Assembly: GCF_055900595.2 (NCBI RefSeq)
Contig: NZ_CM148325.1
Length of the DNA stretch: 64,000 nucleotides
Reading direction: 5' to 3' (one strand)
The position numbers and the translations under genes were made by a program. The notes under the pieces were generated by a model, which saw nothing but the letters and a program-made list of their open reading frames with translations, searched no databases and had not been told where the DNA came from. Below are positions 17,928-43,545 of the stretch, piece by piece. Positions within the stretch are counted from its first letter, which is position 1. Every line of letters begins with the position of its first letter.

Positions 17928-18278
17928 TCACTCCTGGTCTATTTCTATCCGCCGAATCTGTAAACCGTCGTCTGCCACAATTTGTAGCATGTCGCCATGA
18001 CACTGTGGACAGCGCCGGACGCGCTGGGTCAGTAGCGTCACATACTGTTGGCATGTTTCACACCAGCATTCGGCCTCTTGTTCTTCGAGGTGCAGTTTAC
18101 AACCTTCTGCCACGCTGCCGCGGCAAACCAGATCAAAACAAAAGGCAAGAGAGCTGGTTTCGACACAAGAAAATGCGCCAATTTTGAGCCAGACCCCAGT
18201 TACGCGTTTTGCGCCGTGTTTTGCGGCCTGCTGTTCGATCAATTCCAGTGCCCGTTGGCAGAGGGTTATTTCGTGCAT
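17928..18278 (-). CDS. hypA: hydrogenase nickel insertion protein HypA
   Basis: ORF trimmed to MHEITLCQ... (116 aa); CxxC...CxxC zinc site. Confidence 0.9.
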   Translation of the reverse strand: MHEITLCQRALELIEQQAAKHGAKRVTGVWLKIGAFSCVETSSLAFCFDLVCRGSVAEGCKLHLEEQEAECWCETCQQYVTLLTQRVRRCPQCHGDMLQIVADDGLQIRRIEIDQE

Positions 18279-18307
18279 ATCGCCTCCCATTAACTATTGC
18301 CAGCTAC

Positions 18308-18326
18308 AAGCAATAATTGTGCCAGT
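18308..18326 (-). promoter_or_regulatory. sigma54 (-24/-12) promoter for the hyp operon
   Basis: Minus-strand reading CTGGCACAATTATTGCT = TGGCAC-N5-TTGCT, 5' of hypA. Confidence 0.6.
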
Positions 18327-18350
18327 GTTGATTATCCCTAAAGTGAATAA

Positions 18351-18388
18351 TGTCGATGATGTCGAAATGACACGTCGACACGGCGACG
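18351..18388. promoter_or_regulatory. FhlA upstream activating sequence in hyp-hyc divergent region
   Basis: tgtcgatgatgtcgaaatgacacgtcgacacggcgacg; repeated GTCGA/TGACA half-sites between two sigma54 promoters. Confidence 0.5.
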
Positions 18389-18437
18389 AAATTCATCTTT
18401 AGCTTAAAAATTGCTTTAATAACAATAAATTAAAAGT

Positions 18438-18453
18438 TGGCACAGAAAATGCT
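18438..18453 (+). promoter_or_regulatory. sigma54 (-24/-12) promoter for hycA
   Basis: TGGCACAGAAAATGCT: GG-N10-GC spacing, ~40 nt upstream of hycA ATG. Confidence 0.6.
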
Positions 18454-18489
18454 TAAAGCTGGCATCTCTGTTAAACGGGTAACCTGACA

Positions 18490-18951
18490 ATGACTATTTG
18501 GGAAATAAGCGAGAAAGCCGATTACATCGCACAGCGGCATCGTCGCCTACAGGACCAGTGGCATCTCTACTGCAATTCGCTGGTTCAGGGGATCACGTTA
18601 TCGAAAGCGCGCCTGCATCACGCCATGAGCTGTGCGCCAGACAAAGAACTCTGTTTCGTCCTTTTTGAACATTTTCGCATTTACGTCACCCTGGCGGATG
18701 GCTTTAACAGCCACACCATCGAGTATTACGTCGAAACGAAAGAGGGTGAAGAAAAACAGCGGATTGCGCAGGCACAATTGAGCATTGACGGAATGATAGA
18801 TGGCAAGGTCAACATCCGCGATCGCGAACAGGTACTGGAACACTATCTCGAAAAAATCGCTGGCGTTTACGACAGCTTATACACCGCCATTGAAAACAAT
18901 GTACCGGTGAATTTAAGCCAACTGGTAAAGGGACAAAGCCCGGCGGCATGA
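18490..18951 (+). CDS. hycA: formate hydrogenlyase regulatory protein HycA
   Basis: 153 aa, first gene of hyc operon. Confidence 0.92.
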   Translation: MTIWEISEKADYIAQRHRRLQDQWHLYCNSLVQGITLSKARLHHAMSCAPDKELCFVLFEHFRIYVTLADGFNSHTIEYYVETKEGEEKQRIAQAQLSIDGMIDGKVNIRDREQVLEHYLEKIAGVYDSLYTAIENNVPVNLSQLVKGQSPAA

Positions 18952-19001
18952 GCTGAGGCTTTGCCCGTTTTGCAGGCGTTACGCCTGTTTGGGGATGGGC
19001 G

Positions 19002-19056
19002 TGTCGATGAGTGTCGAAAATGACATTTCATCGGCATGTTTTCGTCAAAAATGACA
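19002..19056. promoter_or_regulatory. second FhlA UAS-like element, hycA-hycB intergenic
   Basis: tgtcgatgagtgtcgaaaatgaca nearly identical to the motif at 18351. Confidence 0.45.
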
Positions 19057-19075
19057 ATCACCTGAGGAATGCCTG

Positions 19076-19687
19076 GTGAATCGTTTTGTAATTGCTGACT
19101 CCACGCTCTGTATCGGCTGCCACACCTGTGAGGCCGCCTGTTCAGAGACGCATCGCCAGCACGGCCTGCAATCAATGCCGCGCCTGCGAGTGATGCTAAA
19201 TGAAAAAGAATCTGCGCCGCAGCTCTGTCACCACTGTGAAGATGCACCCTGTGCGGTGGTCTGCCCGGTTAACGCTATCACCCGCGTTGATGGGGCAGTG
19301 CAGCTGAATGAAAGCCTGTGCGTAAGCTGCAAACTGTGCGGCATCGCCTGCCCGTTTGGCGCAATCGAATTTTCCGGCAGCCGTCCGCTGGATATTCCGG
19401 CAAACGCCAATACCCCGAAAGCACCACCGGCACCGCCTGCTCCGGCGCGTGTCAGCACGTTGCTTGACTGGGTGCCGGGTATTCGCGCGATCGCCGTCAA
19501 ATGTGACCTCTGTAGCTTTGATGAACAAGGTCCGGCCTGCGTGCGGATGTGCCCAACCAAAGCCCTGCATCTGGTGGATAACACCGATATCGCCCGCGTC
19601 AGCAAGCGTAAGCGTGAGCTGACCTTTAACACGGACTTTGGCGATCTCACCTTGTTTCAGCAGGCTCAAAGTGGAGAGGCTAAATGA
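19076..19687 (+). CDS. hycB: formate hydrogenlyase 4Fe-4S ferredoxin subunit HycB
   Basis: 203 aa, multiple CxxCxxCxxxCP motifs. Confidence 0.94.
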   Translation: MNRFVIADSTLCIGCHTCEAACSETHRQHGLQSMPRLRVMLNEKESAPQLCHHCEDAPCAVVCPVNAITRVDGAVQLNESLCVSCKLCGIACPFGAIEFSGSRPLDIPANANTPKAPPAPPAPARVSTLLDWVPGIRAIAVKCDLCSFDEQGPACVRMCPTKALHLVDNTDIARVSKRKRELTFNTDFGDLTLFQQAQSGEAK

Positions 19688-21510
19688 GCGCAATTTCCCT
19701 GATCAATAGCGGCGTGGCGTGGTTTGTTGCTGCTGCTGTTCTGGCATTTCTCTTTTCTTTTCAAAAGGCGTTAAGCGGCTGGATTGCCGGAATTGGCGGC
19801 GCGGTGGGTAGCCTGTATACGGCAGCCGCAGGCTTCACTGTGCTGACTGGCGCGGTTGGCGTGAGCGGCGCGTTGTCGCTGGTAAGCTACAATGTGCAAA
19901 TCTCTCCGCTTAATGCGATTTGGCTGATAACCCTCGGCCTGTGCGGTCTGTTTGTCAGCCTCTACAACATTGACTGGCATCGCCATGCGCAGGTGAAGTG
20001 TAACGGCTTGCAGATCAATATGTTGATGGCTGCTGCCGTCTGTGCCGTCATTGCCAGCAATCTGGGCATGTTCGTAGTAATGGCAGAAATCATGGCCCTG
20101 TGTGCGGTGTTCCTCACCAACAACAGCAAAGAGGGCAAACTGTGGTTTGCGCTGGGGCGTCTTGGCACTTTGCTGCTGGCGATTGCTTGCTGGCTGCTGT
20201 GGCAACGTTACGGCACGCTGGATCTGCGCCTGCTGGATATGCGCATGCAACAGCTGCCGCTTGGTTCCGATATCTGGCTGCTCGGTGTGATTGGTTTTGG
20301 CCTGCTGGCCGGGATTATCCCGCTGCACGGCTGGGTGCCACAGGCTCATGCTAACGCCTCTGCGCCAGCTGCCGCGCTGTTTTCCACGGTGGTGATGAAA
20401 ATTGGCCTGCTGGGTATTTTAACCCTGTCTCTGCTGGGCGGTAATGCGCCGCTGTGGTGGGGAATTGCACTTCTGGTACTCGGCATGATCACCGCGTTCG
20501 TCGGCGGTCTGTATGCGCTGATGGAGCACAACATTCAGCGTCTGCTGGCTTACCACACTCTGGAAAATATCGGCATCATCCTGCTGGGGCTAGGCGCTGG
20601 CGTAACGGGTATCGCGCTTGAACAACCGGCGCTGATTGCCCTTGGCCTGGTCGGTGGTCTGTACCATCTGCTTAACCATAGCCTGTTCAAAAGCGTACTG
20701 TTCCTTGGTGCGGGGAGCGTCTGGTTCCGTACCGGGCATCGCGATATCGAAAAACTCGGTGGTATTGGCAAAAAAATGCCGGTTATCTCCATCGCCATGT
20801 TAGTTGGGCTGATGGCAATGGCTGCGTTGCCGCCACTGAACGGGTTTGCCGGGGAATGGGTTATCTATCAATCCTTCTTCAAACTGAGCAATAGTGGCGC
20901 GTTTGTTGCCCGTCTGCTGGGGCCGCTGCTCGCAGTGGGGCTGGCAATTACCGGTGCGCTGGCAGTGATGTGTATGGCGAAAGTTTATGGCGTTACTTTC
21001 CTTGGCGCGCCGCGTACCAAAGAAGCCGAAAACGCCACCTGTGCGCCGCTCCTGATGAGCGTAAGCGTAGTGGCACTGGCGATTTGCTGCGTGATTGGCG
21101 GTGTTGCTGCGCCGTGGCTGCTGCCGATGTTGTCTGCTGCCGTACCTCTGCCGCTGGAGCCTGCTAATACAACCGTTTCTCAACCAATGATCACGTTGCT
21201 GCTGATTGCCTGCCCGCTGCTGCCATTCATCATTATGGCGATTTGCAAAGGCGATCGTTTGCCGTCGCGTTCCCGCGGCGCGGCCTGGGTGTGCGGCTAC
21301 GACCATGAAAAATCAATGGTGATTACCGCTCACGGTTTTGCCATGCCGGTGAAACAGGCATTTGCGCCAGTGCTGAAACTGCGCAAATGGCTGAATCCGG
21401 TGTCGCTGGTACCAGGCTGGCAGTGCGAGGGGAGTGCGTTGCTGTTCCGCCGGATGGCGCTGGTTGAACTGGCGGTGCTGGTGGTGATTATTGTTTCACG
21501 AGGAGCCTGA
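19684..21510 (+). CDS. hycC: formate hydrogenlyase membrane subunit HycC
   Basis: 608 aa polytopic membrane protein. Confidence 0.94.
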   Translation: MSAISLINSGVAWFVAAAVLAFLFSFQKALSGWIAGIGGAVGSLYTAAAGFTVLTGAVGVSGALSLVSYNVQISPLNAIWLITLGLCGLFVSLYNIDWHRHAQVKCNGLQINMLMAAAVCAVIASNLGMFVVMAEIMALCAVFLTNNSKEGKLWFALGRLGTLLLAIACWLLWQRYGTLDLRLLDMRMQQLPLGSDIWLLGVIGFGLLAGIIPLHGWVPQAHANASAPAAALFSTVVMKIGLLGILTLSLLGGNAPLWWGIALLVLGMITAFVGGLYALMEHNIQRLLAYHTLENIGIILLGLGAGVTGIALEQPALIALGLVGGLYHLLNHSLFKSVLFLGAGSVWFRTGHRDIEKLGGIGKKMPVISIAMLVGLMAMAALPPLNGFAGEWVIYQSFFKLSNSGAFVARLLGPLLAVGLAITGALAVMCMAKVYGVTFLGAPRTKEAENATCAPLLMSVSVVALAICCVIGGVAAPWLLPMLSAAVPLPLEPANTTVSQPMITLLLIACPLLPFIIMAICKGDRLPSRSRGAAWVCGYDHEKSMVITAHGFAMPVKQAFAPVLKLRKWLNPVSLVPGWQCEGSALLFRRMALVELAVLVVIIVSRGA

Positions 21511-31148: not shown

Positions 31149-31253
31149 TTTTTTCTGCATTGCAGAATTTAATTTCTTTAAATAACAATCAATTAAAAGT
31201 TGGCATGATTTGTGAATGTATCGGCGCATTAACTGTCATTGCTGGAGAATTTG

Positions 31254-36928: not shown

Positions 36929-36946
36929 TTGCAGATTGCGTGCCAG
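36929..36946 (-). promoter_or_regulatory. sigma54 promoter of norVW
   Basis: Minus-strand TGGCACGCAATCTGCAA (TGGCAC-N5-CTGCA), ~45 nt upstream of norV start. Confidence 0.7.

Positions 36947-42007: not shown

Positions 42008-43545
<1,538 letters not shown>

Follow-up and report, generated by a model that had tools for sequence, protein, structure and literature searches.

The window analysed here, a stretch of 64,000 nucleotides (64 kb), is part of an Escherichia coli chromosome; a 1-kb stretch around the site that concerns us has a counterpart of 95-100% identity in 5425 of 5426 complete E. coli genomes, and the matching genomes annotate that stretch as hypA, hycA and hycB. Two FhlA-type sites of the upstream activating sequence (UAS) kind lie at this locus, one (site A) between hypA and hycA and the other (site B) in the 124-bp spacer that separates hycA from hycB. 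The genes and features are arranged as follows.

17928-18278, minus strand: hypA
18351-18397: site A, an FhlA UAS between the divergent hypA and hycA promoters, with elements A1 (18351-18372) and A2 (18383-18397); second-best match to the FhlA matrix
18490-18951, plus strand: hycA (PF11046), which encodes the FhlA antagonist and lies inside the DNA loop proposed below between site B and the hypA promoter, PhypA
18960-19000, plus strand: a predicted RNA hairpin, outside the UAS, that falls after the hycA stop codon and before site B (-23.8 kcal/mol, z = -2.85)
19002-19056: site B, an FhlA-type UAS within the 124-bp hycA-hycB spacer
19002-19025, plus strand: element B1 of site B, TGTCGA-N4-TGTCGAAAATGACA, the top match to the FhlA matrix
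19039-19056, plus strand: element B2 of site B, TTTTCGTCAAAAATGACA, placed 31 bp (three helical turns) past B1
19064-19068 and 19076-19078, plus strand: the hycB RBS (GAGGA) and the GTG start codon, both conserved in 26 species
19076-19687, plus strand: hycB, with a GTG start

Site B corresponds to the complement of positions 2849869-2849923 in K-12 MG1655 (NC_000913.3). The entire 124-bp spacer is 100% identical to that of K-12, so the classical experiments on K-12 apply to it directly. The RefSeq record for K-12 carries no regulatory or binding feature at the hycA-hycB spacer.

The first element of site B contains two TGTCGA repeats 10 bp apart, with a near-perfect 14-bp palindrome that starts at the second repeat. 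An earlier note on this DNA had proposed that the spacer holds a second FhlA-type UAS motif, nearly identical to the site at 18351-18372 and followed by a further element, and the comparison bears out this description. B1 (TGTCGATGAGTGTCGAAAATGACA) and its counterpart at 18351-18372 (TGTCGATGATGTCGAAATGACA) are identical at all 22 of their shared bases and differ by two single-base insertions. The further element, GTCAAAAATGACA at 19044-19056, repeats GTCGAAAATGACA at 19013-19025 with 92% identity at a spacing of 31 bp. We scored both strands of the window with an FhlA weight matrix built on 13 characterised E. coli-type sites, for which the maximum attainable score is 17.7 bits (PMC7658346). 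Among these 128,000 positions, 19012-19025 in B1 is the best match, at 17.5 of 17.7 bits; 18351-18364 in site A ranks second, and 19043-19056 in B2, at 12.2 bits on both strands, is among the ten best. A permuted window is expected to yield 0.01 matches of 17 bits or more, and none of 300 permutations reached 17.4 bits.

Because the matrix was possibly trained on site B itself, its score is partly circular; the counts of repeated words and the conservation across genera are independent of it. The 9-mer TGTCGATGA occurs four times in the window against 0.58 expected, and three of the four copies are at FhlA-regulated regions, namely the hyp-hyc spacer, the hycA-hycB spacer and the region upstream of hydN. 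The pattern TGWCGA-N4-TGWCGA is found once in the window, at 19002, against 0.04 expected. Site B matches the FhlA recognition motif, for which the published descriptions are the TGTCGAAAATGACA-type palindrome (PMC7658346) and the consensus CATTTCGTACGAAATG (quoted in PMC4987338).

An alignment of HycA provided 80 loci from species-representative genomes in at least 17 named genera of Enterobacteriaceae, including Escherichia, Salmonella, Citrobacter, Enterobacter, Klebsiella, Raoultella, Kluyvera, Kosakonia and Lelliottia. All 80 have the hypA, hycA, hycB arrangement, and all 80 have the block GTGTCGA-N4-TGTCGA...TTCGTCAAAAATGAC just 5' of hycB. Site B is therefore conserved wherever the regulon is, with its motif columns at 98-99%. 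For a finer view we used an alignment of 26 species (at least 17 named genera) and measured identity to the E. coli base. The TGTCGA repeat columns reach 98% and the TTCGTCAAAAATGAC columns 99%; the corresponding values are 37% for the spacer 5' of site B, 55-57% for the linkers inside it, 59-65% for third codon positions of hycA and hycB and 96% for the first and second codon positions of hycB. Sequence and length both vary in the flanking spacer and in the DNA that links B1 to B2, and the hycA-hycB spacer of Enterobacter, at about 70 bp in total, comprises little beyond the motif and the RBS. Within E. coli itself, 5362 of 5426 records show at least 99% identity over the 65 bp around site B, a level that the surrounding 1 kb attains in only 13. 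Judged by this pattern of substitution, the DNA motif at site B is under purifying selection.

The geometry of the site is conserved along with its letters. Of 81 loci, 78 keep the TGNCGA repeats at a distance of 10 bp. The spacing from B1 to B2 is bimodal, with 22 loci at 18-22 bp, 59 at 28-31 bp and none at 23-27 bp. These distances amount to two or three helical turns, which is the signature of a protein that sits on one face of the DNA; the two elements of site B in the window, 31 bp apart, likewise share a helix face. The bimodal spacing fits a statement in a 2024 preprint, made there with reference to a study of FhlA domains, that FhlA contacts the DNA from one side through its HTH domain. 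The invariance of B1 and B2 across Enterobacteriaceae and their spacing by two or three turns are modest additions to the published literature.

A variation on this arrangement was observed in Kosakonia and one soil MAG (L071, L073 and L077-L081), where 14-16 nt are inserted between B2 and the hycB RBS. The insertion is GC-rich and hairpin-like by eye (for example, GCCCGTAAGCGGGC), and it shifts the UAS 15-17 bp farther from hycB while leaving the motif undisturbed.

FhlA is a sigma-54 enhancer-binding protein (PMC4987338), and a site at which it acts therefore requires a -24/-12 promoter. We applied a published RpoN matrix to the whole window and obtained four convincing promoters, which are given here with the accompanying elements.

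18309-18324, minus strand: PhypA, sigma-54 -24/-12 element TGGCACAATTATTGCT, 19.0 bits, the best in the window
18420-18432, plus strand: IHF-like site TAACAATAAATTA, read from the sequence, between site A and PhycA
18438-18453, plus strand: PhycA, sigma-54 -24/-12 element TGGCACAGAAAATGCT, 15.6 bits
31108-31149: hydN-hypF UAS, with the words TGTCATC and TGTCGATGACA
31183-31195: hydN IHF-like site TAACAATCAATTA
31201-31216, plus strand: PhydN, sigma-54 promoter TGGCATGATTTGTGAA, found with the RpoN matrix
36930-36945, minus strand: PnorV, sigma-54 promoter, found with the RpoN matrix

PhypA and PhycA are both present in 81 of 81 loci. On the hyc side the order is canonical, with the UAS (site A) followed by a conserved IHF-like bend site and then PhycA. 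The IHF consensus is WATCAANNNNTTR, to which the site at 18420-18432 has one mismatch, and the AATCAAT...TTAAAA block at this site is conserved in the 26 species. The control region of hydN-hypF has the same layout of UAS, IHF-like site and sigma-54 promoter. On the hyp side, the interval between site A and the -24 element of PhypA is only 26 bp long, is not conserved and contains no IHF-like site. The four promoters agree with the motifs and genes listed in an E. coli ChIP-seq report (PMC4591121); there, the K-12 equivalent of PhycA is a ChIP-seq site and that of PhypA, with a score of 201, belongs to the top two peaks of the table rows considered.

Several smaller features of the hypA-hycA region were also recorded. 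The two promoters form a 27-nt imperfect inverted repeat (18298-18324 and 18438-18464, 78% complementary) that continues on each side past the -12 element as far as a second TGGCA (AGCTGGCA), and TGGCATCTCT recurs at 18460 and 18559. Across genera, A1 is conserved and A2 is not. The loci of Klebsiella, Raoultella and Enterobacter JUb54 (L045, L068, L056, L070 and L052) have a rebuilt site A, with extra repeats of the TGTCGATGAC/TGTCATCGAC type and an insertion of about 10-15 bp relative to Escherichia, and an almost unchanged site B. The remote site B is thus the more conserved UAS of the two.

PhypA and PhycA are the sole sigma-54 promoters within looping range of site B. Relative to PhypA the site is upstream, at about 680 bp when counted from its edge, or about 730 bp between its centre and the inferred start; relative to the PhycA start it is downstream, by about 540-590 bp. 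The documented reach of such enhancers is as much as 3 kb on the upstream side and 1.5 kb on the downstream side (PMC3844500), and hyp is dependent on both FhlA and sigma-54 (PMC4591121, PMC3844500, PMC4987338). Because PhycA already has site A with an IHF-like site whereas PhypA has no bend site, the parsimonious pairing is of site A with PhycA and of site B with PhypA. We consider it probable that site B is a remote FhlA UAS that loops to PhypA and drives hypABCDE-fhlA, an assignment to hyp that combines this geometry with earlier experiments.

The experiments in question come from the Böck laboratory. Deletion analysis by Lutz et al. in 1990 (Mol Microbiol 4:13) reportedly placed the hyp UAS between hycA and hycB. 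The same position is said to have emerged from the FhlA footprints, obtained with DNase I and hydroxyl radicals, of Schlensog, Lutz and Böck in 1994 (JBC 269:19590) and of Leonhartsberger et al. in 2000 (Eur J Biochem 267:3672), and from in vitro expression by Hopper et al. in 1994 (JBC 269:19597), and it is reportedly the one given in Leonhartsberger's 2002 review of the formate regulon. We take site B to be the FhlA-footprinted hyp UAS of these papers from 1990-2002. The earlier note, in referring to a "published hycB-proximal UAS", uses wording that points to the same assignment. Site B is thus almost certainly the remote hyp enhancer of the literature, and not a new internal promoter. In terms of its sequence it is a real, deeply conserved and presumably functional FhlA site, and an already described element of a much-studied E. 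coli regulon.

A mechanism can be outlined for site B as the hyp UAS. FhlA oligomers activated by formate would assemble on B1 and B2 along one helix face, and about 700 bp of DNA, including the whole of hycA, would loop out between site B and PhypA. The AAA+ domain of FhlA would then remodel the sigma-54 closed complex at PhypA, with ATP hydrolysis opening the promoter. The resulting formate-dependent transcription of hypABCDE-fhlA would supply hydrogenase maturation proteins together with more FhlA, a positive autoregulation of fhlA. Site A, with its IHF-like bend site, would serve PhycA and hence the production of hydrogenase 3 and of the antagonist HycA. The feedback circuit would in this manner be closed, with FhlA driving hyp-fhlA and the gene for its antagonist, hycA, inside the loop. 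Some points weigh against the assignment to hyp. PhypA has site A upstream of it as well, centred near -76, and in principle could be served from there; the computed evidence does not separate action on PhypA from action on PhycA; and the FhlA matrix may include site B in its training set.

The first alternative is that site B, together with site A, acts as a downstream enhancer of PhycA, at about +540 to +590, either instead of or besides its action on hyp. Enhancer-binding proteins act at a distance from either side of a promoter (PMC3844500). PhycA is slightly nearer to site B than PhypA is, and FhlA oligomers could bridge sites A and B, whose first elements are nearly identical. However, PhycA already has a complete module of UAS and IHF-like site, and any RNA polymerase that transcribes hyc has to cross site B. 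Moreover, the hyc-hyp intergenic region alone reportedly gave full formate induction of hyc fusions. We regard an enhancer role at PhycA as unlikely on these grounds. A bifunctional site B, in which activation of hyp is joined either to downstream enhancement of PhycA by bridging to site A or to a partial roadblock that, with the hairpin at 18960-19000, tunes the ratio of hycA to hycB-I transcripts, is an idea that we hold to be quite doubtful.

A further alternative was put forward in the earlier note, which read site B as an internal activator site that drives hycB-I independently of hycA. Site B is immediately 5' of hycB, in the orientation that site A has to hycA, and there would be regulatory sense in uncoupling the structural genes from the gene for the anti-activator. 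The identification of an FhlA-type UAS in that note stands; the promoter function deduced from it is not supported, since neither a sigma-54 element nor a sigma-70-like promoter was found. Site B ends at 19056, only 7 nt before the hycB RBS at 19064-19068 and 19 nt before the GTG at 19076, an interval with no room for a sigma-54 -24/-12 promoter. On the plus strand from 18990 to 19700, the best score with the sigma-54 matrix is 3.9 bits, against 15.6 for PhycA and 19.0 for PhypA, and no plus-strand sigma-54 element recurs at a common position between site B and 1.6 kb past the hycA start in the 81 loci. A consensus scan of 18250-19350 for sigma-70 promoters and terminators was negative, with no sigma-70-like promoter in 18952-19075, although a scan of this kind is a weak test. 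The hycA and hypA promoters are entered in the main-text sigma-54 tables of both the ChIP-seq work on E. coli (PMC4591121) and a ChIP-chip survey of Salmonella (PMC3844500), and term searches of the two texts returned no mention of hycB or STM2852. With no -24/-12 promoter past site B, an internal hycB-I promoter would be without its essential component, and none of the three marks of such a promoter, a sigma-54 element, a sigma-70-type promoter or sigma-54 occupancy near hycB, was encountered in these searches. We judge an enhancer for an internal hycB-I promoter to be very improbable; the correct annotation of site B is hyp UAS, and it should not be taken as evidence of a promoter internal to hyc.

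One candidate promoter within hycA, which site B would serve from downstream, was considered and rejected as a by-product of coding. The sigma-54-like sequence TGGCATCTCTACTGCA at 18559-18574 on the plus strand scores 11.9 bits; of the 81 loci, 54 score 10 bits or more at the equivalent position, with a maximum of 16.4 bits in Klebsiella. The motif is spelled by the codons of Trp24-His/Arg-x-Tyr27-Cys28, in which Trp24, Tyr27 and Cys28 are invariant. Cys28 is encoded by TGC in 62 loci and by TGT in 19, and the unrelated Cys48 by TGC in 57 and by TGT in 24; because codon use at the two positions is similar, there is no sign of an extra constraint on this motif at the level of DNA. A term search of the E. 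coli ChIP-seq paper located the name hycA just once, at its promoter row (PMC4591121).

Site B might also be conserved for a role in hyc mRNA, in the initiation of hycB translation or as a target for an sRNA or protein, and merely resemble an FhlA site. It does lie in the transcribed hycB leader, beside a conserved RBS and 3' of a stable hairpin. Its conserved units, however, are DNA palindromes and direct repeats at 10 bp that fit the FhlA motif, its linker varies by whole helical turns as a constraint on the DNA face would dictate, and the same words appear at the untranscribed UAS regions of hyc and hydN, all of which makes a role in RNA most implausible. Lastly, a chance similarity or a decaying, functionless duplicate of site A, for which nothing speaks except the general frequency of short repeats, is refuted by the 0.01 matches expected at the score of site B and by the conservation of its motif columns, at 98-99% in 26 species against 37-57% for the neighbouring non-coding bases.

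As the hyp UAS, site B can be compared with known systems, beginning with its own counterpart. The E. coli K-12 hyp UAS, as reportedly mapped, is at the same locus, in a spacer that is 100% identical, and has the same bipartite FhlA motif; we detected no difference, the window being from another E. coli strain. The hyc UAS (site A) shares with site B a first element that is the same bar two one-base insertions, and both sites are conserved across Enterobacteriaceae. Unlike site A, which occupies the canonical position of about -70 to -115 and is accompanied by an IHF-like site, site B has no promoter of its own within 500 bp and is located inside a transcribed operon, and across genera its second element is invariant, in contrast to A2. 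The hydN-hypF UAS has TGTCGATGA and the words TGTCAT/ATGACA in common with site B and belongs to the same regulon (PMC4987338), but its layout is the canonical, promoter-proximal one. Distant looping from no fixed position has precedents in the NtrC sites that were moved up to 3 kb from glnAp2 and in the Bacillus subtilis rocG enhancer (PMC3844500). Those enhancers work with other activators and other motifs than site B; the glnA arrangement was made artificially, and the enhancer of rocG is downstream of its gene. Site B would then be a textbook-grade case of a natural enhancer in bacteria that lies within an adjacent operon and reaches its promoter across about 0.7 kb.

Elsewhere in the window, FhlA-matrix matches of at least 12 bits number nine in all, against three expected. 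One of them, TGTCGATGGTGTCA at 42454-42467 on the plus strand (14.7 bits), is 50 bp upstream of a weak sigma-54-like motif, TGGCATCATTATGGCT, at 42389-42404 on the minus strand (11.7 bits). From the gene order, 42389-42467 is presumably in the srl/gut sorbitol gene region, and the pairing is probably due to chance.

The RNA hairpin at 18960-19000 is followed by a weak U-tract. The segment is absent from the clade of Klebsiella, Enterobacter and Kluyvera, and most loci of Salmonella, Citrobacter and Intestinirhabdus have a predicted hairpin in this position, with different inner-stem sequences. Between hycA and hycB, such a structure could serve as a leaky terminator or as an element for mRNA stability.
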